NCBI GenBank assembly: GCA_964581895.1
Contig: CAZOPR010000002.1
Span: 254,185-318,184 of the forward strand
DNA: 64,000 nt
Direction: 5' to 3'
Source: an uncultured Brachyspira sp.
GTDB taxonomy: Bacteria; Spirochaetota; JAAYUW01
The position numbers and the translations under genes are program-made. A model generated the notes under the pieces. The model saw only the letters and a program-made list of their open reading frames with translations, searched no databases and had not been told where the DNA came from. Below are positions 26,012 to 57,955 of this stretch, piece after piece. Position 1 is the first letter of the stretch; each line of letters opens with the position of its first letter.

Positions 26012-26431
26012 AAAAAAATATTAAAATAGTAGGTAAAACTTATATTTATTTTATCAAAAGTAAAGGAGGATTATTTTATAAAGATTATTTTTTATAATTA
26101 TTATTTTTAGGAAAAAGATTATTTTAGAAAAAAGTTTAAAAAAATAATTTTTTATGTATTTTTAGTTGCATATTCTATAAAAATATTTTACTGTTAATCT
26201 GGTTTTTGTTTTATTTTTTTATGGCAATAAAAGGTTTTTATGATTTTAAGAATTAAAATTTTAAAAATATGTTAAAAATAAAGGAATATAAGGTAGAAAT
26301 TTAAATAATGAAAGCTAAAAGTAAAATTTTATAAAGAAACTTAAAATAAAAAAATAAAAAATATAAGTAAGATATTGTAGATAAAAGTTTATTTAAGAAA
26401 AGAGAAGGCAAATTTAAAATAAGGAAATAGA

Positions 26432-29161: not shown

Positions 29162-29273
29162 GCTCGAAAAAGAACAAAAAAAAAGAACTAAAAGAAGAAA
29201 TAAAAAAAATTAAGTAAAGAAATAAAAAAAGATATAAAAAAAAGAAAAAAAAGAAATAAAAATAAGGAATTTT

Positions 29274-30305: not shown

Positions 30306-30535
30306 AATAATATGGCGAAATAAAAAAAATAAAAAGATAAAATAAAGAAAATACAAAGAAGATAAAAAAAATTCAATAAAAGTTAAAAAGAAAAAATAAA
30401 AAGAAAAAGTAAAAGAGAATAAAAAGAGAATAAAAAGAAAAAATAAAAAGAGAATAAAAAGAGAAAATAAAGCGAAAATAAAAAAATATTATAAAGATAA
30501 AATAGAATTAATAACCTTAAATAATAAAATCTATC
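30306..30535 (+). repeat. A/G-only low-complexity spacer with internal gagaataaaaa-type repeats
   Basis: About 230 bp almost devoid of C/T on + strand. Confidence 0.7.
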
Positions 30536-32817: not shown

Positions 32818-33408
32818 ATGAAAAAATTTTATTTTATATTTTTTGTTTTTATATTCATAATTTTAATTTCGTGTAATACTACAAATAGTTTTGTAAAGAC
32901 AAGTTGGGTAGAAAGACTAAATCAAAAAGTTATAGTTGAAAATGATTATTGTTATGCTGAATGTAGCTTTGTAGATAAAGAGGCAATGACAAAAAATATT
33001 GCATCAGAGGGGATGAATCCTTTTATCTATAGGGACCCAATAATTACAAAACAGGAATCTATATTATTTTCTCTTCTTATTATACCAAAGGTAAATTTTG
33101 AAATATATGCCCAAGAGGTTTACATTAAAACTGAAGCAGCTAGTTATCCAATACTTTTTAGTGAATATATTCTTGATCAAAATATGTATGAAAGTGAAAT
33201 TGATTCTGTAACAAAAAAGATGAAAGACTTTGTTAATAAATACTTTCTTTCAAAAAAAGAGATATATAAAAATGGTGAAAGAAAAGTTAGATTTTTATAT
33301 TCTATTGTAAATCTAGATTATAAAGGTGCTATGGTTAGGATACCTATTCATATAAATCAGGATAAAATTTCTGTATTAAATTTTATTTTCCCAGAAATAA
33401 AAAGATAA
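32818..33408 (+). CDS. Hypothetical lipoprotein
   Basis: Signal peptide with lipobox-like LISC. Confidence 0.35.
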   Translation: MKKFYFIFFVFIFIILISCNTTNSFVKTSWVERLNQKVIVENDYCYAECSFVDKEAMTKNIASEGMNPFIYRDPIITKQESILFSLLIIPKVNFEIYAQEVYIKTEAASYPILFSEYILDQNMYESEIDSVTKKMKDFVNKYFLSKKEIYKNGERKVRFLYSIVNLDYKGAMVRIPIHINQDKISVLNFIFPEIKR

Positions 33409-33527
33409 AATAAAAAAATAAAGTATAAAAGATAAAGACAATAGATAAAAAAATATTAAAAAAAAGCAAATAAAAATAAAATAAAAGTAAAAAAAATATA
33501 ACTAAGATAAAATAAAAACAAAAAAAT

Positions 33528-33839
33528 ATGCAAAAGGATAAAATCTTAAAGCGAATTGTAACTGAATGTTTCTGGGACTATGATATTGATGAAAATTATT
33601 TATCCAATGCTATAAAAAATGGTGGCTTAACCGAAAAAAGAAAAATAGCTGAAAAAATAATACTAAATATGAGACAACCTGTAGATGGGCTACTTCTATT
33701 TTCAAAGGAAGATTTAGCTAAAATATTTGAATCTTTTAATGAAAAAATCAGGAAAAAAGAAAAAGTATTACTTTTGGAAAATTGTCTTTTAGGAAAAAAT
33801 AATAAAATAGAAAAATATGAATGGAAAAAGTTGGGATAA
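33528..33839 (+). CDS. Small hypothetical protein, candidate partner of AbiEii-like NTase
   Basis: 103 aa; overlaps next gene by 23 nt in a different frame. Confidence 0.3.
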   Translation: MQKDKILKRIVTECFWDYDIDENYLSNAIKNGGLTEKRKIAEKIILNMRQPVDGLLLFSKEDLAKIFESFNEKIRKKEKVLLLENCLLGKNNKIEKYEWKKLG

Positions 33840-35952: not shown

Positions 35953-37266
35953 ATGAAGAAAAAAATAAATAAAATACTTTTCATTCTCCTTTTAATAATT
36001 ATCATTGCTGCTATTAGTTTTTACTTTATTTATAAAAATAAGGTCGCAGCAAAAAAAAATATTGTTTTCACCACTGCTATAATCCAAAGTGGTAGCATCA
36101 CAAGTTCTGTAAGTGCATCTGGAAAGATAGAGCCAATCGATTCCTATCCTGTAATGGCTTCAATATCTGGTAAAATAGATAAGGTTCTTGTTGATTATAA
36201 TTCAAAAGTCAAAAAAGGGCAGATTTTAGCCATAATAAAACAGGATGATTATTTGTTTGCCTTGAAGCAGGCTCAGCTTAGTTACGATGAAGCAACTATA
36301 ACTTTATCAAATAAAGAGATGGATTATAATAATAATCTTGAACTTTATAAAAAAGGTTTTTTGACTTCTGCTGCACTAAAAGAATCTGAAAATAGTTATA
36401 AACTTGCACAGATAGCAGTTGAATCGGCTAAGGTTTCGCTTGAAAAGGCTAAAACAAATCTTGAAAATACATTATTAAAATCTCCAATAGATGGCTTCAT
36501 ACTTGAAAAAAATGTTGACGAAGGGGATTTTATAAGCACAAATATTTCTCAATCTGAACTTTTTGTAGTCTGTTCAGATCTTTCAAGACTGAAAATAACG
36601 GCAAATGTTGATGAATCAGATATTAGTCTTATAAAGGAAGGCCAAAAAGTCCAATTTACAGTTTTGGCTTATGATACAATGAGTTTTACAGGAGAAGTAA
36701 AACAGATAAGATTAAATTCAAATGAAAGCTCAAATGTTGTGACTTACACAGTTATAATAGAGACAAAAAATATAGATAATAAGCTACTTCCAGGGATGAC
36801 AGCTTCTATAGAATTTGTAAATCAACCAAGCGAGGGAGCATTTTTGGTTCCTCAAACATCAATATCACTAAAAGGTTTGGCGTTGCTTAAGAATATTGGA
36901 CCTTATACTGTTAATATCCCAAAAAATCAAGGGGTTAATCCTTCACAAAATCAAAATCCTTCACAAAATCAAAATCTTTTTAAAACACAAAATCCTTCTC
37001 AAAATCAAAATCCTACTCAAAATTTTAACAAAAGTTCTGATTCAAACCAACTTCAAAACAAGAATATAAAGATACTATGGGTTATAGATGAGACAAAAAA
37101 GATTGTATATCCAATTCCAGTAAAAACAGGAAATACAGATGGGAAAATGATTGAGGTCTTTTCTCCACTTTTGAAAGAAGGGATGAAAATAATTTCAAGC
37201 CTTATGACTAAAAATAAAACCAATAACCAGAACAATAATTTTGGCATGCCTCCAATTCGATTTTAG
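35953..37266 (+). CDS. Periplasmic adaptor (membrane fusion, HlyD/MacA-like) with C-terminal N/P/S/Q repeat
   Basis: N-terminal TM, coiled-coil hairpin, beta-barrel region; NPSQNQ tandem repeats near C-terminus. Confidence 0.7.
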   Translation: MKKKINKILFILLLIIIIAAISFYFIYKNKVAAKKNIVFTTAIIQSGSITSSVSASGKIEPIDSYPVMASISGKIDKVLVDYNSKVKKGQILAIIKQDDYLFALKQAQLSYDEATITLSNKEMDYNNNLELYKKGFLTSAALKESENSYKLAQIAVESAKVSLEKAKTNLENTLLKSPIDGFILEKNVDEGDFISTNISQSELFVVCSDLSRLKITANVDESDISLIKEGQKVQFTVLAYDTMSFTGEVKQIRLNSNESSNVVTYTVIIETKNIDNKLLPGMTASIEFVNQPSEGAFLVPQTSISLKGLALLKNIGPYTVNIPKNQGVNPSQNQNPSQNQNLFKTQNPSQNQNPTQNFNKSSDSNQLQNKNIKILWVIDETKKIVYPIPVKTGNTDGKMIEVFSPLLKEGMKIISSLMTKNKTNNQNNNFGMPPIRF

Positions 37267-39357: not shown

Positions 39358-39439
39358 AATTTTATATTAAATAAAAGATAAAATTAGATAAAAGAAATAT
39401 TAAATAAAAGAAAATATTAGATAAAAGCTAAGAGTAGGT

Positions 39440-40264
39440 ATGGAAAAAATAAAATTTGCATTTTTGTTTTTCATTTTAGTTTTACCTTTATCTTTATTCT
39501 TTAATTTTGGGGCAAAAAATTTTTCAGATAATTTAATTTATGAAAGAAAAGTATATTTTTCAATCCAGTCATTTCAAAATGATAAGGCTTTTGAAAGGTA
39601 TTTAGGATTTTTGAAAAACAACAAGATAAGTGGAATAACATTTTATGGACTTCATAAAAAACTTGAGGTTAGTCCATCGGTAATTTTCGCAAAATTGAAA
39701 AATGAGATACCAGAAATTCAGATATTTATAGCAGGAGACAACTTTGATTTTTTCAATACTTTAAATGAAGATAAGAACTTGATGCAATATGTAGATGGAT
39801 TTCATATTGAGTATGAATACTGGAATTATTACAAATATAAGAAAAAAGATAGAAACGATGCTTTCAATTATTTTATAGAAGAATCAAAAAAAATTAAAAT
39901 TCTTACCAATGAAAATAAGAAAAAATTTGAAGCATATTTTGGATGGTTTAACGATGAAGAAGCAAAAAGTTTTTTACCTTTTTTTGATTCTATTTTACTT
40001 CATTCATACACGAATCAGATACAAAAAACAGGGCAATATATATTTGAAAGATTGTTGACTTTAAGTAAAATAGACTCCCAAATCCCCTGGTTTATACTAT
40101 GCTCAGCAGAAAAAGATTTTATGGAACAAACCTTAAAAGAGTACGGCCTATTTAATTTAGAAAAATTGATTCTTGAAAATATAAAACCAAGCTTTGATTA
40201 TTTAAAAAATTTTAAAGGATTTTACTGGTTTACTGGTGAGCTAGTCGAAAAAGCAATAAGATAG
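39440..40264 (+). CDS. Hypothetical secreted protein
   Basis: Signal peptide; no recognised domain. Confidence 0.3.
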   Translation: MEKIKFAFLFFILVLPLSLFFNFGAKNFSDNLIYERKVYFSIQSFQNDKAFERYLGFLKNNKISGITFYGLHKKLEVSPSVIFAKLKNEIPEIQIFIAGDNFDFFNTLNEDKNLMQYVDGFHIEYEYWNYYKYKKKDRNDAFNYFIEESKKIKILTNENKKKFEAYFGWFNDEEAKSFLPFFDSILLHSYTNQIQKTGQYIFERLLTLSKIDSQIPWFILCSAEKDFMEQTLKEYGLFNLEKLILENIKPSFDYLKNFKGFYWFTGELVEKAIR

Positions 40265-44375: not shown

Positions 44376-45098
44376 CTATAATTTTACAACTAAGGCAAAA
44401 CCAATATCCAAAAATCCAGCTTTATTGAAAAAATAAGGTTGAAAATAAGCGCCAACTGAAAAAATCGGGAAATTGAATTTAATACCAATTAAACAGGACA
44501 AATTAAAAAGGCTTTGCTCTATAGCAAAACTTACCCCTAAATCCATTCCAAAAATCTGAAAGAAAGCAAGATAAGATTTCATCCATAGTGCATAGGAGAT
44601 ACCTTTACCAGTTTCGTAACCGATAGCAGAATTTACAAAAAAGTTATAACCATTTGGGAAATTATAAATCGAGTAAATATAGCTAATAGAAGAGAAAAAA
44701 TCAGGGCTAAATTTCAGTATTTGTCTGAAGGCGAGATACCATTCATTTTTCTCAAAGTTGACACTTAATAAAATTTCATGCCTATCTATTTTATCTGTAA
44801 AATAAAAACCATACATAAAGTCGATATACCAACTTTTAGGGAAGATAAATGTCCCACCAAGCATTATTTTATAACCAGTATCACTTTCATAATAATATGA
44901 ATAACCAAAAAGAGCAGATAAAGCAAAAAAATTCGAGATTGGAAAAGATAAAGATTGATTTAATCTTCATTGAGAAAGGTTAGAATCATCTAAGCTCATA
45001 TCAAATTCAGTTGAAATCCAGATTTTTGGGGAAGCAAAAAGTGGAAGACTAAAAAAACATAGTACGATAAATAATATAAATAATTTTCTATTTTTCAT
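44376..45098 (-). pseudogene. Outer-membrane beta-barrel-like gene interrupted by in-frame TGA (minus-strand codon at 44967-44969)
   Basis: Signal peptide ORF MKNRKLFILFIVLCFFSLPLFASP... is in the same frame as the 162-aa ORF starting at 44864; single TGA between them. Confidence 0.45.
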
Positions 45099-45260: not shown

Positions 45261-45286
45261 AAAAGGAGGTAAATTATGAAAAAAAG

Positions 45287-45359
45287 TCGGAAAGAGGAGA
45301 TTTGAACTCCTGACCCCATGGTCCCGAACCATGTGCGCTACCATCTGCGCTACTTTCCG
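45287..45359 (-). tRNA. tRNA-Pro (anticodon CGG)
   Basis: 73-nt cloverleaf: acceptor CGGAAAG/CTTTCCG, D-arm GCGC-AGATGGTA-GCGC, anticodon arm CATGG-TTCGGGA-CCATG, T-arm AGGAG-TTCAAAT-CTCCT; CCA not encoded. Confidence 0.85.
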
Positions 45360-45568
45360 ATAAAAGCTGAGATTAAAAAGAAAATTACAAAAGAAAATTA
45401 CAAAATAAAATAAAAATTACAAGTTAACCGTTTTTATTTATTAGACTAGATTTTTGCTTAAAAATTACATTTTATTAATAAAAAATTGTCTTTTAAAAAA
45501 TTTTTGAATTAACTTTTCATAAAATAGATTTTACATTAAAATAAATCTTATTAAAGTCGCTATTTTTT

Positions 45569-47545
45569 TTATTTTTTTGTTAGTAGTTTTATCTTATCTC
45601 GAAGCACTGCTGCTTCCTCAAATTCCCACTTTTTAGCAGCTTCCATCATTTGATTTGTCAAAATTTTAATCAATTTTTCTTTTTCTTTTGGATTTAATAT
45701 ATTGTATTTTTTTATCAAAAGATCATAGGCAAGACTTGCGCCTTCTTCTTTTGCCTTTTCCTCTCTTTCGATAAATGTTTTAACCTCTTTTTTTATACTG
45801 GCAGGCACTATATTGTTCTTTTCATTGAACTGGATTTGTATCTGTCGCCTTTTTCTTGTAAGCTCTATAGCCTGCTTCATCGAATCTGAGATTTCATCGG
45901 CATACATTATTATCGTTCCATTGACATTTCTCGCCGCCCTACCCATCATCTGTATTAAAGATTTTTCTGAACGTAAAAACCCGACTTTATCTGCATCTAA
46001 TATTGCGACAAGAGTAACTTCGGGTAGATCCAACCCTTCCCTTAAAAGGTTGATACCAACCAGTATTTTATATTCACCTTTTCTAAATCTGGTAATGATA
46101 TCTATTCTATCGAGAGAGTCAATTTCTGAGTGAAGATAGGCAGCAGGGTATCTTTGCTTTTCAAGATAATCAGCCAGGTCTTCAGCATTTTTTTTGGTTA
46201 AAACAAGTGCCAAAATCCTTTCATCATTAGCAAGTCTTTTATCTATTTCAGCTATTAAATCCTTAACCTGGTTTTCTGCTGGGCGAACAATTATTTCAGG
46301 GTCTAAAAGTCCTGTTGGCCTTATCCATTGTTCGACAACAACACTTGAACTTGTTTCATATTCAGAAGGTGTTGCACTTACAAATAAGACCTTGTTAAAA
46401 TATTTTTCTACTTCTTCAAAACGAAGTGGTCTATGGTCATAGGCAGAAGGAAGTCGAAAACCATAATCGATAAGCGCTTTCTTTCGCGATAGATCTCCAC
46501 CATACATGGCATGAAGTTGAGGAATTGTAACATGTGATTCATCGATAACTATAAGAAAATCTTTTGGGAAGTAGTCAAGCAAAGTTGCAGGCGGTTGCCC
46601 TGGGAGCCTTCCACTAAAATGTCTGCTATAATTTTCAATCCCTTTTACAAAGCCTACCTCATTTATCATCTCTATATCATAAGAGGTTCTTGATAAAAGT
46701 CTTTCTGCTTCAAGGTTTTTCCCCATTTCTTTAAGCTGCCTATATCTATCATTAAGTTCATTTTCTATGGAAATTAGTGCTCTTTTTCTTTCGTCAAGGT
46801 TTGTGACAAAATGCTTTGCCGGATAGATGGTGAATTGTTCTACTTCTGAAATCAAATCTGTAGTAACCGAATGAATAAGCAAAAGCTTTTCGATATTATC
46901 TTGAAAAAATATAATTCTTAAAGCATGCTCGGTATAAGCAGGGAAGATATCTACAATATCCCCTTTGATTCTAAATTTTCCAGGGGTAAATTCTATATCA
47001 GATCTTTCATAAAATATTGCGACAAGAAGCGAGGTAAGCTGTTCTATAGGCATTTGTTCATTTACCTTTAATGGTATTCTCTGATTTTTATATTCATCAG
47101 GATTTCCTATACCATAGATACAGCTTACCGTAGCCACTACTATTACATCATTTCTTGATAAAAGTGCTTCTGTCGCTTTGAGTCGGAGTCGCTCAATCTC
47201 TTCGTTTATATCGGAGTCCTTTTCTATATAGAGATCTCTTGTTGGTAAATATGCTTCTGGTTGATAATAATCAAAGTAAGATACAAAATATTCAACTGCA
47301 TTTTCAGGAAAAAAAGAGTGAAGTTCGCTATAAAGTTGACCAGCTAAAGTTTTGTTATGAGATATCACAAGAGTTGGAAGTTGAAGTTTTTCAATGATAT
47401 GAGCAACCGTAAATGTTTTGCCAGAGCCAGTTACCCCGTGCAAAGTAACTCTTTGTTTACCACTTTTAAAAGCTAAAGTTATCCTTTCTATTGCTTGTGG
47501 CTGATCTCCCGCTGGTGAAAAATTTGAATGAATCTTAAATCTCAT
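45569..47545 (-). CDS. uvrB: Excinuclease ABC subunit B
   Basis: Walker A GVTGSGKTFT, helicase motifs, C-terminal UvrB/UvrC interaction region EEAAVLRDKIKLL. Confidence 0.95.
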   Translation of the reverse strand: MRFKIHSNFSPAGDQPQAIERITLAFKSGKQRVTLHGVTGSGKTFTVAHIIEKLQLPTLVISHNKTLAGQLYSELHSFFPENAVEYFVSYFDYYQPEAYLPTRDLYIEKDSDINEEIERLRLKATEALLSRNDVIVVATVSCIYGIGNPDEYKNQRIPLKVNEQMPIEQLTSLLVAIFYERSDIEFTPGKFRIKGDIVDIFPAYTEHALRIIFFQDNIEKLLLIHSVTTDLISEVEQFTIYPAKHFVTNLDERKRALISIENELNDRYRQLKEMGKNLEAERLLSRTSYDIEMINEVGFVKGIENYSRHFSGRLPGQPPATLLDYFPKDFLIVIDESHVTIPQLHAMYGGDLSRKKALIDYGFRLPSAYDHRPLRFEEVEKYFNKVLFVSATPSEYETSSSVVVEQWIRPTGLLDPEIIVRPAENQVKDLIAEIDKRLANDERILALVLTKKNAEDLADYLEKQRYPAAYLHSEIDSLDRIDIITRFRKGEYKILVGINLLREGLDLPEVTLVAILDADKVGFLRSEKSLIQMMGRAARNVNGTIIMYADEISDSMKQAIELTRKRRQIQIQFNEKNNIVPASIKKEVKTFIEREEKAKEEGASLAYDLLIKKYNILNPKEKEKLIKILTNQMMEAAKKWEFEEAAVLRDKIKLLTKK

Positions 47546-47579
47546 ATTTACCCTTTTTCTTTAATAAAAAATAACCTTT

Positions 47580-47680
47580 AATAAAATATAATTTTTATTA
47601 AAATATAATCTTTATTAAAATATAATCTTTATTAAAATATAATCTTTATTAAAATATAATCTTTATTAAAAAATATTTTA
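47580..47680. repeat. Tandem 17-bp repeat (attaaaatataatcttt), 4 exact plus 2 degenerate copies, in the uvrB upstream region
   Basis: Exact copies at 47597-47613, 47614-47630, 47631-47647, 47648-47664; each contains tataat. Confidence 0.85.
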
Positions 47681-47714
47681 AGTACTAAATTTAAATAATT
47701 TATTAAAAACTTGA

Positions 47715-48887
47715 TCATTCAAAAATCAACTCGACATTTCCCATATTTACATCAAGATTAACTTTCAATAAATTTTTTTCATCAATTTTATTTTGATCAG
47801 AATTTAGCTCAAAATCACTAGAAAAGCTGTGAGTCTGTCCTTGATATCTTATTTTAACACTTGCAGCATTTGTTTTTGATTTAACAAAAAAGTTGGGGCA
47901 GTTTTTCACCTGGAAAATAGAATTCGTCATATTTGATTTGTAATTAAAAGATGAAGGAAAATTTGTAAAGTTTTCAGATATTATTGTATAATTTCCAGCG
48001 TTTTCTTTAATGCCGATAGTTGAAGAGATATCTAACTTTTTTGCATTCAAAACAGAATTTGAGGCATTAAAGTCAAAAGATAAATTTTCTGTTTTTAGTA
48101 GGTTTGTAGAAATTTCTGATTTTGAAGCATTTAACTTATAAGAAAATGAGTTTTTTGCAATAATTTGCTCACTTTCAAACGAATTTTCTGATGCAGAAAA
48201 ATTCAGCTGAATCTGGTTTGAAGTTAAATTTAATATTTTTTCGCTAATATCGCTTGCATTAGCATCCATTTCAAAAAGATTTGAAATATCAATCTTTTCT
48301 GATGCAATCTGAATATTTGATGCATTTGACTCAAATTTTAGGTTTGAATACTTCGTTGGAAGAATAATAAATGCAAAAAGATACATTTCATCATCAAAAT
48401 TATAGTCTTTTTTTGAAAGATTTTCTAAAATTTCAAGTTTATCAGAAGTAAAAATAACTGGATTATCAATCCCCGATATTTTGGTGTAAAATTTATAAGA
48501 AATTTTTGGTTTTTCTTTATCTGAAAAGATTAAAACAGCCTTTGTCAGGTTAAGTGTAAGATTAAAATCTTTAATAACATTTTCAAGGCTTAGCTCATTT
48601 TTTTCTGATATAGGAAAACTTGTTGAGCTTTTAATAAAAGAATCTGCCTCCTGGAAAAACTGATCTTCGATAGCATTTAAGTTATTTAAATCATTTAAAT
48701 TAACTTGGAAGCTTGCAGCATTCTTAAAATTATCAATATTATGGTAAAAAGGTCTGATACTATGAGGAATGAACTTAAAACCAGTATCTTTACTATCTAA
48801 ATATGCCTTTGCAACAAAAAGTAAGACAAGACCAATAATTAAAATGACAGCAAGGAATATCCCTAAAATTCTTGTGCTATTTTTCAT
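47715..48887 (-). CDS. Membrane-anchored protein with repetitive Asn/Ser-rich beta-strand-like C-terminal repeats
   Basis: N-terminal TM; repeated units such as NASNIQIASEKIDIS, ANASDISEKILNLTS, DFNASNSVLNAKKLDIS; ATG 48887 has GGAG upstream (track start 48899). Confidence 0.35.
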   Translation of the reverse strand: MKNSTRILGIFLAVILIIGLVLLFVAKAYLDSKDTGFKFIPHSIRPFYHNIDNFKNAASFQVNLNDLNNLNAIEDQFFQEADSFIKSSTSFPISEKNELSLENVIKDFNLTLNLTKAVLIFSDKEKPKISYKFYTKISGIDNPVIFTSDKLEILENLSKKDYNFDDEMYLFAFIILPTKYSNLKFESNASNIQIASEKIDISNLFEMDANASDISEKILNLTSNQIQLNFSASENSFESEQIIAKNSFSYKLNASKSEISTNLLKTENLSFDFNASNSVLNAKKLDISSTIGIKENAGNYTIISENFTNFPSSFNYKSNMTNSIFQVKNCPNFFVKSKTNAASVKIRYQGQTHSFSSDFELNSDQNKIDEKNLLKVNLDVNMGNVELIFE

Positions 48888-49015
48888 TTTCATCTCCATT
48901 TAATTTTATTCTTAACTTTTTATTATCAATTTTTTTCATAAAATTTTTGATATTATCATTTTTTTATAGAATGTTCAATATTATCAATTTTTTTCATCGT
49001 CAATACTGTTAATTT

Positions 49016-49420
49016 TTAATTTTTTTCTTTATTTAATTTTTCATTTTCAATACTGTTATTTTTCAAATTTTCTTCATTTATAAAGCTTATAAGTTCATCA
49101 ACTGTAATACTTAAAATCTTCATTTTCTTTATAATATCTGGTATCTCATTTTTAATGAATTCTTCTTTTTTTATTTTTAATATTTTGTTATATGAATCTT
49201 TACTTAAAAAATAACCTATTCCTCTTTTATTATAAATAACGCCCAGATCCAGACATTCACTAAATGCTTTGGCTACGGTGTTTGGGTTTACTTCAAGATC
49301 AAATGCAAGTTCTCTAATAGATGGGATTCTTTCTTCTTCTTTCCATTTTTTTTGCAAGATTAAATCGAAGATCAATTCTATGATCTGTAAATAAATAGGT
49401 TTTGTTTCATCAAATCTCAT
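49016..49420 (-). CDS. GntR-family transcriptional regulator
   Basis: Winged-HTH segment RIPSIRELAFDLEVNPNTVAKAF. Confidence 0.7.
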   Translation of the reverse strand: MRFDETKPIYLQIIELIFDLILQKKWKEEERIPSIRELAFDLEVNPNTVAKAFSECLDLGVIYNKRGIGYFLSKDSYNKILKIKKEEFIKNEIPDIIKKMKILSITVDELISFINEENLKNNSIENEKLNKEKN

Positions 49421-49423
49421 TAA

Positions 49424-50236
49424 TTATTCTCCTTTTACATCATACTCTACTATTCTTAAATATGTCAGAAAATAGAAGAAGAAAGAAAGAAGGAATTTTA
49501 TAATTTCGCCAAGTAAAGTGTAATTTATCTCTTTTAATCCTAATCTTGATAGAGTATCTGAAAGATTGAGTGAAAATTGCATTGACATATTATTAAAGAA
49601 TAGCAAAAATACTGATGTATATATCAAAAAAAAGGCGAAGAATATTGCAAGTATAGTTAATATTGTGAGTAGAAAACTATTTTTTTTGAAATATGTCGAA
49701 CCAAGCATAAAGATAGAAGTGATAAAAAAGTATGAAGAAATTATTTTATAGTTAAAAAGAGATAATATCGCATCTAATGGATAAGTTCTTCGCAAAAAAG
49801 CAAAAATAAAAATATTATTAACTAAGAAAGCGATGATAGTAAATAATATACTTAAAAGAAGATAAAAGAAAAAATAGTAAAGCCAGATACTCAAAAATTT
49901 TTCAAAGATTGTTACTGGAACCATAAAAAATTGTGTTGCTTTTTCTTCCTGATGAAGATGCTTAAAACTATTTGAAGCCATAATGCAACCAATAAATAAA
50001 GAAATTATTAGATAAAAATTAAGGTTGATAGAATTAGTTATCATTATAGAACTGGCAATAAAAATCTTTTTAATAAAAATAGTAAATAAAATACCAAAGA
50101 TAAAAATTAAGTTTACAACTAAAGGCGCTATAAAAATTTGTTTACCATATAAATTAAAATCAAGTTTCAATAAAGATAGAAAATTCTTAGTTTTCGAATT
50201 TTCGTAAATTCTAAGTTTTTTATCTATTTCTGTCAT
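49424..50236 (-). CDS. Multi-pass membrane protein, probable ABC-2 type permease
   Basis: Six predicted hydrophobic segments; sits between ABC ATPase and GntR regulator. Confidence 0.4.
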   Translation of the reverse strand: MTEIDKKLRIYENSKTKNFLSLLKLDFNLYGKQIFIAPLVVNLIFIFGILFTIFIKKIFIASSIMITNSINLNFYLIISLFIGCIMASNSFKHLHQEEKATQFFMVPVTIFEKFLSIWLYYFFFYLLLSILFTIIAFLVNNIFIFAFLRRTYPLDAILSLFNYKIISSYFFITSIFMLGSTYFKKNSFLLTILTILAIFFAFFLIYTSVFLLFFNNMSMQFSLNLSDTLSRLGLKEINYTLLGEIIKFLLSFFFYFLTYLRIVEYDVKGE

Positions 50237-50253
50237 TTTTTACTCCTATTGTA

Positions 50254-50460
50254 ATGTTATTTTTTCCTTTTTTCGTTTTTATTTTTTATTTTTATATTTT
50301 TATATTTTTTACTTTTCTTTATATTTTTTACTTTATTTTTATTTATTTCTTTTCTATTCTTTTTTTACTTTTTGCTTTTTTATTTTCTTTTTTTAATTTT
50401 TTTTATTTTTTGCTTTTATATTTTTTGTTTATTTTGTTTTTATTATTTCAGTTTGACTGA
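50254..50460 (-). repeat. Polypurine (A/G-only on minus strand) spacer between ABC ATPase and permease genes
   Basis: About 200 bp of T/C-only sequence on + strand. Confidence 0.7.
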
Positions 50461-51275
50461 TTAAAAATAGTCGGATTTGATATAGCAGCATTGAAGAAAA
50501 ATTCTAAATCTACTACCTCATTATTATTTTTTCTATTAAGAAGGTAGATTTTGCCAGTTGCTGACTGCTCAAAATATATAATATTTTCCTGATCATTTTG
50601 TTGATTTGATTCAGTAGCAATAGAATAATTTTGAGTAATATAGTCTAAAGAGTTATTAAAAATGATCTTGCCTTCGTGAAGTATTATAATTTTATCAAAA
50701 AGCTGAGACAGATCTCTTACCTGGTGTGTAGATATTATAAAAATTTGATTTTCAGTTAAACTTTCAGCTATTTTTTTTCTTACAGAAGTCTTTGAAGGGA
50801 TATCAAGACCATTTGTTGGTTCATCTAAAAGCATTATTTTAGCAAATGTTGAAAGGCCAAATGCAAGGTAAAACTTTTTCTTCTGACCAAATGAAAGAGA
50901 GATCAGGTTTTTATCAAGAGGGATTTCAAATTCTTTGCAGGTTTTGAAAAAGTATTCTTCATCAAAATTTGGGTAAAATTCACTGTAAAGTTTATAAAAT
51001 TTTTCACCATTGAAAGATGGCAAGTAAAAATTTTCAGGGAAAAAGAAGATATCTTTCAGCATTTCTGGATCTCTTTTTATAGATTTTTTACCCATAACTT
51101 CGATTTCGCCATTATTTAAATGAAGTAGTCCTGTTATACATTTTAATAATGTCGTTTTCCCTGCACCGTTTTTACCTAAGAGTCCATAGATATGTCCTTG
51201 CTCAAAATTTGCATAAAGATTATTGAAAAGCAGGTTTTTTGAATAACCAAAGACAAGATTTTTACATTCAATCAT
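50448..51275 (-). CDS. ABC transporter ATP-binding protein
   Basis: Walker A GKNGAGKTT, signature LSFGQKKK, Walker B MLLDEPTNGLD; AAGGAG 5 nt upstream of ATG 51275. Confidence 0.85.
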   Translation of the reverse strand: MIECKNLVFGYSKNLLFNNLYANFEQGHIYGLLGKNGAGKTTLLKCITGLLHLNNGEIEVMGKKSIKRDPEMLKDIFFFPENFYLPSFNGEKFYKLYSEFYPNFDEEYFFKTCKEFEIPLDKNLISLSFGQKKKFYLAFGLSTFAKIMLLDEPTNGLDIPSKTSVRKKIAESLTENQIFIISTHQVRDLSQLFDKIIILHEGKIIFNNSLDYITQNYSIATESNQQNDQENIIYFEQSATGKIYLLNRKNNNEVVDLEFFFNAAISNPTIFNQSN

Positions 51276-51478
51276 CATATCTCCTTAATATTAATATTTT
51301 AGTGCATTACATCACTAATACACCAAATAAATAATACAATAATTTCAAAAGTCAACTATTTTTAAATTTATTTTGAAAATTTAATTAAAAAATATATTCT
51401 TAAAAAATTAATTTTTCAAAAATTTCTTTTTGAAAAATTAATTTTTGAAAAAAGATTAAAAAAAAGTATTTTATTTAT

Positions 51479-53197
51479 ATGAAACGAAAATATGGTTTTC
51501 TATTAATCTTAATAATTTTTATAACTCTGTTTCTTTCTTTTCAAAATGAAGATAATGAAGAAAGGATAATTTCAGATTCACAGCTTTTAATAAAAGAAGG
51601 GAATTATTCAAAGGCTTTGACTATTTTACTTGCTGAATTTAATAAGAATAATAAATCCTATAAAATTCCAGAAAAAATTGCCTCAATCTTTTTTTCTCAG
51701 CAAGTTTATGACCTCGCATTGAAGTATTATAAGATTGCCTACGAAAATGGATTGAAAAATGTAGAGATTTTAGAAAAAATTGGTGAATCTTATGCATATG
51801 TAAATGACAATAAAAAAGCTATTGAATACTTAAAAGCTGCATTTTTACAGGGGAATTCAGACCCATATTATCTTTATTCATTAATATGGGTTTTATTAAA
51901 AGAGAAAAAATTTAGTGAAGCATATAGTTTACTTGAATTTGGCAACTCGATGTATCCAAATCTTTCATATTTTATTGGTGCAAGAGCATTATACTATGCA
52001 AATACTTTTGATATTGAAAACGCAAGAAAAGATTATGAAAAAGTTCTGATTTTGACTGCATCTTACTCTCCAATCTATTTTTATAATTGGGGAGTCATGG
52101 AATATCAGCTTAGAAATTTTGCTAAGGCACAAGCTTTATTTTCTGAAGCTGCAAATTTTTCAGGTTTTGGAGAGGCTTTTTTAGCTTTAGGGGAGTTAAA
52201 TCTAAGTAAAGCAGAGATAGATCTGGCTGAAAAGTATTTTCTTAGGGGGAAACCACTATTAAAATCTCCATTTATTCTGTATGATTTGATCTACCTTTAC
52301 AGCATAAAAGGAGAAAAAGATAAACTTTTATCAGTATATAAAAGCATTATTAAATTTCCAAATAAATGGTGGATATATCAGTACAATTTGAACCTTTATG
52401 AACAGATGATGAATTTTTATGAGTTAGAATCTTTTTACTATAAAAATCTTGCCCAGCTCGAAAAGAAAAGTTTTTATCAAAATTTTTCAGCAAGATTGAA
52501 ATCTTTTTTTAATATTTTAAATTACAGGATTTTAGGTTTCGTTTCAAGTCTTAGATTAAGATATTTCGCCATTATTCATCTTATGAGTATAGATAAAAAG
52601 CTCGAATCTTTGAATTACTATCAGATTTCAAGAAAGGCATTATCTAGCTTTCCATTTATAAACAAAAAATTGATTTTAACTGAAAAATCAATTTATGAGA
52701 AGGTCAATTCAAAAGATAGTCATATATATGATCTTTATCTTGCGCAAATTTTAAAATCAAAAATAAAAAAAGAAAAATTAATAGATCAGTTTTTATTAAA
52801 AGCCGATTACCATTATGAAAGATTAGATATACTTAATGCACTTGAGATAAAGGCAAAATTAAATAGAAAAAATATTGAAAAATATATTGAAATTATAGGA
52901 AAAATTTATGAAATTCTTCCTTATTACTTCAATAGCAGCGATTTGAAAATTCCTATTGATATTCAATTTGATGGCAAAAAAGAAAATATAAAATTAATCA
53001 AAAGTTATTTTAAGGCTAAAGGAATTATTATAAATAAAGATTCAAACTTGAAACTAAATGTAAGTTGTGGAGATACTTTTAACTTTGTTCTTGAATATAA
53101 AGGAAGTTCAAGTTTTTTCTCTTTGACTAAAGAGGATATAAGTTACGATAGAGTTTCAATTTATGCAAATCTACTATCAATCTTAAGAAATAATTAA
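51479..53197 (+). CDS. TPR-repeat protein with N-terminal signal/anchor
   Basis: Multiple 34-residue TPR-like units (ALKYYKIAYENG, AIEYLKAAFLQG). Confidence 0.5.
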   Translation: MKRKYGFLLILIIFITLFLSFQNEDNEERIISDSQLLIKEGNYSKALTILLAEFNKNNKSYKIPEKIASIFFSQQVYDLALKYYKIAYENGLKNVEILEKIGESYAYVNDNKKAIEYLKAAFLQGNSDPYYLYSLIWVLLKEKKFSEAYSLLEFGNSMYPNLSYFIGARALYYANTFDIENARKDYEKVLILTASYSPIYFYNWGVMEYQLRNFAKAQALFSEAANFSGFGEAFLALGELNLSKAEIDLAEKYFLRGKPLLKSPFILYDLIYLYSIKGEKDKLLSVYKSIIKFPNKWWIYQYNLNLYEQMMNFYELESFYYKNLAQLEKKSFYQNFSARLKSFFNILNYRILGFVSSLRLRYFAIIHLMSIDKKLESLNYYQISRKALSSFPFINKKLILTEKSIYEKVNSKDSHIYDLYLAQILKSKIKKEKLIDQFLLKADYHYERLDILNALEIKAKLNRKNIEKYIEIIGKIYEILPYYFNSSDLKIPIDIQFDGKKENIKLIKSYFKAKGIIINKDSNLKLNVSCGDTFNFVLEYKGSSSFFSLTKEDISYDRVSIYANLLSILRNN

Positions 53198-57876: not shown

Positions 57877-57955
57877 AAATATTTAATCCTGATATTTAAT
57901 TTTAATATTTAATTCAAACATTTAATTCAAATATTTAAATCTAATATCTAACCTT
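57877..57955. repeat. Phased degenerate ~13-bp repeats (atatttaattc-like) in the scpA upstream region
   Basis: aaatatttaatcc / tgatatttaatt / ttaatatttaattc / aaacatttaattc / aaatatttaaatc. Confidence 0.6.

Follow-up and report, generated by a model that had tools for sequence, protein, structure and literature searches.

A copy-number-variable 17-bp tandem repeat upstream of uvrB in an Exilispira-like lineage

The uvrB locus and the array upstream of it

We analyzed a stretch of 64,000 nucleotides (the window), which has a G+C content of about 26%. The UvrB protein encoded in the window is 81% identical to a protein that is named "Exilispira sp.," and a cluster at 94% identity bears the same name (MCR4421642.1); we refer to the latter as the sister species. 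The window thus belongs to an Exilispira-like spirochete that is known from metagenomes. When we searched genome contigs with UvrB, the matches listed were relatives at 50-55% identity.

The cluster at 47715-51278 has the order ABC ATPase, membrane protein, GntR/YtrA-type regulator, hypothetical membrane protein of ~390 amino acids, and uvrB (Table 1). This order is kept at four loci from Exilispira-like lineages (L104, L105, L108, and L111; 81-100% UvrB identity), and the relatives that keep it have UvrB identities of 94, 88, 87, and 81%. Across these lineages, the spacer between the hypothetical gene and uvrB varies from 9 to 169 nt. In two relatives, this spacer is only 28 or 9 nt, so uvrB is presumably either cotranscribed with the upstream gene or served by a promoter inside it. 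More broadly, uvrB may belong to the ABC/GntR operon. No intrinsic terminator was predicted in the spacer between the hypothetical gene and uvrB, so the uvrB transcript may start upstream of the array. As for the hypothetical gene itself, the gene calls of public assemblies give a protein of 390 amino acids that starts at 48887; by exact look-up, this version was matched and the 394-amino-acid version was not.

Open reading frames in the window are intact under the standard genetic code (table 11). A code in which TGA is a sense codon, as in Mycoplasma, was rejected: the table 11 reading frames are intact, UvrB has no in-frame TGA, translating TGA yields merely spurious extensions of open reading frames, and the sister species ends the upstream gene at the same TGA.

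Separately, a gene for a 240-amino-acid protein with a signal peptide-like N terminus (44376-45098, minus strand) is interrupted at codon 44 by an in-frame TGA; the corresponding codon of the sister species is TGG (Trp). Of this gene, the public calls cover just the C-terminal part (162 amino acids), and a contig from another sample (L081, 100% identical to the window) has the same sequence. This TGA could be a nonsense mutation, the mark of a pseudogene, or a sequencing error.

Table 1. Positions of genes, repeat units, and promoter-like sites around the uvrB spacer
Feature	Position	Strand	Sequence or basis
uvrB, 658 aa, intact	45569..47545	-	Pfam UvrB_inter, UvrB, Helicase_C, UVR
Leader tail and ribosome-binding site	47546..47558	-	aaaaaGGGtaaat, then ATG; sister species equivalent aAGGtaaatATG, conserved
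17-bp tandem array, seven units	47559..47677	-	Direct reading and TRF; G+C 6%
Perfectly periodic core, 78 nt (4.6 units)	47594..47671		Includes the three units missing from the 4-unit allele
Unit D	47677-47661	-	aatattttttaataaag, read 5' to 3' on the uvrB strand
Units P1-P3, identical (perfect)	47660-47644, 47643-47627, 47626-47610	-	attatattttaataaag
Unit V1	47609-47593	-	attatattttaataaaa
Unit V2	47592-47576	-	attatattttattaaag
Unit V3	47575-47559	-	gttattttttattaaag
Only sigma-70-like site on the uvrB strand in the spacer	47653..47681	-	TTAAAA (47681-47676)-17-TATATT (47658-47653), 9/12 matches
Three overlapping promoter-like sites	47598..47660	+	TTAAAA-17-TATAAT, 10/12 matches; antisense to uvrB and the upstream gene
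Promoter-like site in 3' end of upstream gene	47785..47812	-	TTGAGC-16-TAAAAT; sister species TTGAAT-16-TAAAAT, same position
Upstream hypothetical gene, N-terminal transmembrane segment, no Pfam family	47715..48899	-	TGA stop at 47715
GntR/YtrA-type regulator	49016-49420	-	NCBIfam
Membrane protein (permease), 270 aa	49424-50236	-	NCBIfam
ABC ATPase	50448-51278	-	NCBIfam

The spacer upstream of uvrB (47546-47714, 169 nt) is mostly occupied by seven head-to-tail units of 17 bp, in the order D, P1-P3, V1, V2, and V3 on the uvrB strand; V3 is followed by aaaaagggtaaat and then ATG. An earlier reading of this DNA, from the sequence only, had described four exact and two degenerate copies of a 17-bp unit between the uvrB start (47545, minus strand) and the upstream gene. 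We found ATTAAAATATAATCTTT exactly at 47597-47613, 47614-47630, 47631-47647, and 47648-47664, with degenerate copies on either side, and the array (47559-47677) does lie within 47546-47714. When TRF was run on the window, it reported a single array in the uvrB spacer (47558-47675, period 17, 6.9 copies, 93% matches, score of 194). Seven head-to-tail 17-bp units with 93% matches are a minisatellite, which has units of about 10-100 bp.

To compare the periodicity to chance, we used the length of the exact periodic run rather than the TRF score. The TRF score alone is a poor discriminator here, because shuffled A/T-rich spacers score as high as 242. At a lag of 17, the array matches itself exactly for 61 nt, which corresponds to a periodic core of 78 nt. 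Across 1,000 dinucleotide-preserving shuffles of the spacer, the same run was 10.0 ± 1.5 nt, with a maximum of 17, and the second-longest such run in the 64-kb window was 22. The periodicity of the array is far beyond chance. There are stop codons in every frame of the array on both strands, so it is noncoding.

Repeats in strains, in relatives, and in other spacers

We recovered the locus from four other metagenome samples by exact-protein look-up, so the evidence for polymorphism comes from metagenome contigs, and perfect repeats can be collapsed in short-read assembly. Two contigs span the spacer (L082 from JGI 3300043540 and L103 from JGI 3300009503). Both contain D-V1-V2-V3 only, that is, four units; relative to the seven-unit array of the window, exactly 51 nt, or three P units, are missing. 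In the flanks, they share 99.0-99.2% identity with the window, and they have a linked g-to-a change in V3. In the other two samples, the contigs break inside the array. In Logan SRR10095374, both contigs match the window at 100% identity; the left one (L127) stops after D-P, and the right one (L081) begins within a P unit. In the sample JGI 3300045276, L128 is the left contig and stops 8 nt into the first P, and L083, on the right, opens with three or more P-type units, with an A-to-T change in the middle one. The breaks in these two samples could reflect heterogeneity or merely the length of the repeat. Breaks from both sides are expected only in the presence of perfect units, and they are restricted to the haplotype that has such units; the haplotype without them was assembled through.

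Thus, two complete alleles were seen, with seven and four units, both from metagenome assemblies. The sequence-only reading had proposed that copy number be compared across strains, and it would have been weakened by a repeat number that was the same in all of them. Instead, the window has seven units while L082 and L103, which are two independent contigs, have four; the change is in whole units and the flanks are about 99% identical. Whole-unit differences between conserved flanks are what defines a variable-number tandem repeat (VNTR), and in these metagenome assemblies the array has them.

We then considered more distant relatives. In the sister species, the spacer is 91 nt, and its length is invariant in 11 contigs from different samples. 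These sort into two alleles that differ by one SNP, with 33 nt between the end of a TATAAT and the ATG, and none of the 11 contigs has the repeat in its uvrB spacer. In further relatives, the gene order is unchanged and the spacers are 28, 9, and 147 nt (the last in the relative with 81% UvrB identity); these spacers also lack the repeat. Because the repeat is missing from both the sister species and the more distant relatives, the array postdates the split from the sister species. The array is also not a conserved part of uvrB control, since the sister species does without it and the spacers of relatives are as short as 9-28 nt.

Tandem arrays are not limited to the uvrB spacer. In a census of the window (tandem arrays with periods of at least 7), arrays covered 1,611 of 5,768 intergenic bases (28%) versus 1,064 of 58,232 coding bases (1.8%). 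In the 33 spacers that we tested, arrays covered 1,398 bases versus 770 ± 116 in shuffles, or about twice as much. Within the cluster, all five spacers have arrays: the ABC promoter region, ABC-permease, GntR-hypothetical, hypothetical-uvrB, and uvrB-tRNA. No arrays were found in the corresponding regions of three scanned relatives, whose G+C content is similar or slightly higher (27-33%); L108 has one short array, which is inside a called gene. Since every cluster spacer has an array and the relatives have none, the arrays point to a lineage-wide mutational habit and not a device that is specific to uvrB. The uvrB array is the most perfect example of this lineage-wide enlargement of spacers by tandem duplication. 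For instance, the ABC-permease spacer (50237-50447) is 211 nt in the window versus 45-59 nt in relatives, and the GntR-hypothetical spacer is 116 nt versus 42-53 nt in the relatives with 94% and 88% UvrB identity. A genome-wide periodicity of 17 nt was rejected: across the other spacers there was a modest excess at lags 13, 16-17, and 26, which was due to a few individual arrays.

Degenerate A-rich repeats of the type AAATAAAAAGA, with periods of 11-12 and multiples, fill four spacers (29167-29270, 30318-30504, and 33393-33544 on the plus strand, and 50258-50449, where the minus strand is the A-rich one); for all but one of these spacers, the flanking genes have the A-rich strand as their sense strand. 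Upstream of the ABC/GntR cluster, the divergent promoter region contains a 15/30-nt tandem repeat of TTAAAAAATTTATTT (51385-51452; 4.5 copies, 83%), which is a candidate for an operator or promoter duplication for the GntR-type regulator. A 17/33-nt tandem repeat of ATATTAAATAAAAGAAA (39364-39427; 3.8 copies) fills nearly all of the 82-nt spacer upstream of the gene at 39440, and its unit is unrelated to the uvrB unit. At 48921-49081, a segment of 28 nt is duplicated in tandem (2.6 copies), as is one of 47 nt (1.9 copies); the latter duplication covers the end (3') of the GntR gene together with the next spacer. Arrays of 13-nt units lie between a histidine kinase gene and scpA (57877-57951; 5.8 copies, 80%) and between uvrB and the tRNA-Pro(CGG) at 45286-45359 (45372-45411; 3.2 copies, 92%). 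Finally, an 18-nt repeat of AATCCTTCTCAAAATCAA (36937-37023; 4.8 copies) lies in frame inside a 437-amino-acid open reading frame (35953-37266), where it would encode a short peptide repeat.

Promoter-like sites and alternative explanations

First, we considered the promoter-like sequences in the array. The sequence-only reading noted a TATAAT-like hexamer in each unit, and it suggested that the array might provide multiple -10 elements for uvrB or a promoter spacer of variable copy number. TATAAT is indeed present, as five exact copies, but these are in antisense orientation to uvrB, on the plus strand. The uvrB strand of the array has no TATAAT; instead, TATATT occurs five times at 17-nt intervals, and the hexamer within the array at the -35 distance is AAAGAT, which is a poor match. 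In this form, the suggestion of multiple -10 elements for uvrB is not supported; the sequence-only reading is borne out in part, by the location of the array and by its whole-unit differences between strains. A variable promoter spacer does not fit either, because a 17-bp unit cannot tune a -35/-10 spacer of 16-18 bp, and the sole sigma-70-like site on the uvrB strand has identical hexamers and spacing in both alleles.

That site (TTAAAA-17-TATATT) marks the array's 5' edge and is unchanged in the four-unit allele; it is a match to a consensus, which is not evidence of use. Because of its location, the perfect units alter its distance to the start codon and not the spacing of the -35 and -10 elements. 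If the site is used, the leader would be about 101 nt with seven units and about 50 nt with four. The promoter-like site in the 3' end of the upstream gene is an alternative potential source of the uvrB transcript, and if it is used, the entire array would be part of the 5' leader. The conservation of this site in the sister species may simply reflect coding constraint.

Each unit might also act as an UP element. UP elements are A/T-rich sequences, with the consensus AAAWWTWTTTTNNNAAA, that lie at -40 to -60 of an active promoter. A UP-element-like pattern, WWTWTTTTNNNAAA, is matched by all seven units in the uvrB orientation. Across the window, the pattern had 53 matches versus the 44 ± 8 expected from shuffles, so it is not enriched.

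These sequences suggest an alternative explanation, in which TATATT boxes, UP-like sites for the alpha subunit, or both, lie upstream of a proximal core promoter and tune uvrB: added units would raise or lower uvrB transcription, and excision-repair capacity would vary heritably between clones. The regular TATATT boxes and the UP-like match in every unit are consistent with this, as is the position of the most proximal TATATT, which ends 39 nt before the ATG, near the 33 nt for TATAAT in the sister species. Strains do differ in copy number, and the VNTR upstream of clbR has a 2-fold effect on expression (PMC7364221). However, AAAGAT occupies the -35 distance and the single site that our scan yielded for the uvrB strand is at the array's edge; the UP-like pattern is no more common than expected in this AT-rich window; the sister species and other relatives have no array, and some of their spacers are just 9-28 nt; and neighboring spacers that are unrelated to uvrB hold similar arrays. 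Overall, we consider it unlikely that the array is a promoter or UP-element array of this kind, although this is the leading alternative.

Second, the length difference might be an artifact of assembly, with one true copy number and with collapsed repeats in the four-unit contigs. Perfect tandem repeats do cause collapses or breaks in short-read assemblies, and within this array there are four contigs that break. However, the four-unit contigs came from different samples, share the SNP in V3, and differ from the seven-unit haplotype by about 1% in the flanks. They also lack any perfect unit, while a collapse usually leaves at least one copy, and the breaks are confined to the haplotype with perfect units. 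Given the restriction of the breaks and the linked SNP, we argue that the four-unit allele is real, and an artifact seems quite improbable.

Third, the plus-strand TTAAAA-17-TATAAT sites might act as promoters of an antisense RNA that enters the gene for the upstream membrane protein at its 3' end, which would modulate that gene or interfere with transcriptional read-through into uvrB. These three sites, at 10/12 matches, are the best promoter matches in the region. They are created by the perfect units, and the four-unit allele does not have any 10/12 site of this type. But the sites are matches to a consensus in DNA of 6% G+C, the relatives do not conserve the sites, and there is no plus-strand gene or RNA family downstream: the next plus-strand gene begins at 51479 and the Rfam search was empty. 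We therefore view antisense promoters as a very unlikely explanation.

We also searched for structured elements, operators, origins, and dispersed copies. A structured RNA or DNA element was rejected: the predicted RNA fold of the leader is no better than those of shuffles (z = 0.08; 97 of 200 shuffles did equally well or better), and the same holds for the DNA fold (z = 0.53); the mean probability that the Shine-Dalgarno-to-AUG region is unpaired is flat, at 0.54-0.63 across zero to eight perfect units. Rfam reported no family in the region, with a best match of E = 0.78 that is outside the array. The sequence-only reading had recognized no SOS-box-like palindrome, and a search of 47501-47800 agrees: six variants of the LexA box, as well as half-sites, are absent, which rules against an SOS box or LexA operator. 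An origin of replication with iterons was rejected as well, because DnaA boxes are at chance level (19 in the window versus 19.1 expected, none of them within 5 kb of the array), there is no rep gene, and the flanks are a conserved chromosomal cluster.

A dispersed motif or regulon was rejected because the full unit, its core (AGATTATWTTTT), and the UP-like pattern are all at chance levels outside the array. In particular, the unit had 20 matches in the window, including 13 outside the array, versus 9.6 expected for the whole window, and is not enriched; the core motif is not enriched elsewhere in the window either. In a collection of metagenome contigs, which we scanned with a unit-and-a-half pattern, there were no tandem copies, just 19 single matches in unrelated AT-rich DNA. 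One other locus is of note: a 420-nt divergent spacer contains imperfect repeats of 14-17 nt (26069-26132), whose consensus (ATTATTTTTTATAAAG) resembles V3. The unit of this array (at 26074) is the sole other unit that resembles the uvrB unit (p of about 0.01 before correction, with 8 comparisons), and the similarity to V3 is not significant once corrected for multiple comparisons.

Finally, the array might be a set of operators or iterons for a DNA-binding protein, such as the adjacent GntR/YtrA-type regulator, a LexA-like repressor, a replication initiator, or a nucleoid protein, but although the direct repeats are regular and of operator-like size, adjoin a regulator gene, and each contain a weak dyad on direct reading (TTAT-N6-ATAA), the results for LexA and DnaA boxes, the absence of rep, the conserved chromosomal gene order, the lack of enrichment of AGATTATWTTTT elsewhere, a 17-bp spacing that would be out of helical phase, and the retention of the GntR gene by relatives that lack the repeats make this extremely unlikely.

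Origin of the array and comparison with known systems

The array is probably a young and lineage-specific VNTR (minisatellite) that was generated by slippage in the leader of uvrB or in its spacer and that has little or no regulatory role. Its origin and its changes in length would be due to slipped-strand mispairing, or to unequal exchange between units, in an extremely A/T-rich spacer. Older duplications may have given rise to the four diverged units, D-V1-V2-V3. The sequence of P is made up of the 16 nt at the 5' end of V1 together with the final base of D, and a single 17-nt duplication, out of register across the D/V1 junction, would produce P; repeats of this step would lead to the seven-unit allele. 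The reverse route, in which P units were lost by deletion, would be equally consistent with the alleles.

As a slippage-generated VNTR, the array would be transcribed within the uvrB leader, with a start at the site at its 5' edge or further upstream. Copy number would then change the length of the leader in steps of 17 nt and would leave promoter geometry and the accessibility of the ribosome-binding site unchanged. By our estimate, copy number probably has little effect on uvrB expression, or none. The -10-like and UP-like sequences that recur in the units would be by-products of the multiplication of an A/T-rich segment.

The array might instead be a contingency locus for DNA repair, with copy number setting the output of uvrB via the UP-like and -10-like units or via antisense promoters, but we think this is highly doubtful. 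If it were true, the capacity for nucleotide excision repair, tolerance of UV and chemicals, and the mutation rate would vary heritably between clones of a thermophilic spirochete. More generally, if the number of repeats did tune uvrB, this would be a rare example of a repair gene under VNTR control; none of our findings requires that. In practice, the difference between four and seven units serves as a clean marker of strains in an uncultured Exilispira-like population, and the array is also a point where short-read assemblies break. Together with the neighboring spacers, it shows that tandem duplication enlarges the intergenic regions of this lineage and not those of close relatives with similar base composition, which is a modest point about genome evolution.

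Several known types of repeats resemble the array in part, and the nearest are intergenic VNTRs of bacteria and the VNTRs in the clbR and hmw1A leaders. Phase variation via the promoter spacer, as in hif of Haemophilus influenzae, with (TA)n, or vlp of Mycoplasma hyorhinis, with poly-A, involves tracts between the -35 and -10 elements. These tracts sit inside the 16- to 18-bp spacer and alter its length in steps of 1-2 bp. The array is similar in that it is a repeat, probably generated by slippage, near a putative promoter, but its 17-bp units are outside the spacer of the sole sigma-70-like site on the uvrB strand. Mycobacterial MIRUs are intercistronic minisatellites within operons, and they form a dispersed family with units of 40-100 bp at many loci. 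Like them, the array consists of tandem units that vary between strains and lie in the spacer between two genes of a conserved cluster; unlike MIRUs, or REP-like repeats, its unit is confined to one locus.

In H. influenzae, hmw1A and hmw2A have a heptamer repeat, (ATCTTTC)n, in the 5' untranslated region, and it acts through a long RNA hairpin that is cut by RNase III (PMC12721329). Both repeats are upstream of a gene and vary in copy number, and both lie in the transcribed leader, if our view of the uvrB transcript is correct. However, the fold of the uvrB leader, at the level of shuffled sequences, is not a hairpin of the hmw type, and the accessibility of its ribosome-binding site does not depend on copy number. 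Another parallel is the VNTR upstream of clbR, in the colibactin island of E. coli, where 2-20 copies of an 8-bp unit (ACAGATAC) are found; the transcription start was measured, and expression changed by about 2-fold between 20 and 5 repeats (PMC7364221). There, as in the putative uvrB leader, a strain-variable repeat lies between the promoter (putative in our case) and the start codon. The units differ in size, with 8 bp for clbR versus 17 bp here, and it is for clbR only that an effect on expression was measured.

Bacterial intergenic VNTRs or minisatellites are also used in MLVA typing, as in Yersinia pestis (PMC3689786). The array differs from these in coming from an uncultured, Exilispira-like lineage of thermophiles, in having two complete alleles seen, and in having a unit that is almost pure A/T. 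Otherwise it is alike: these VNTRs have no demonstrated function, and they are built from head-to-tail noncoding units of 10-100 bp that differ between strains by whole units and lie between conserved flanks.
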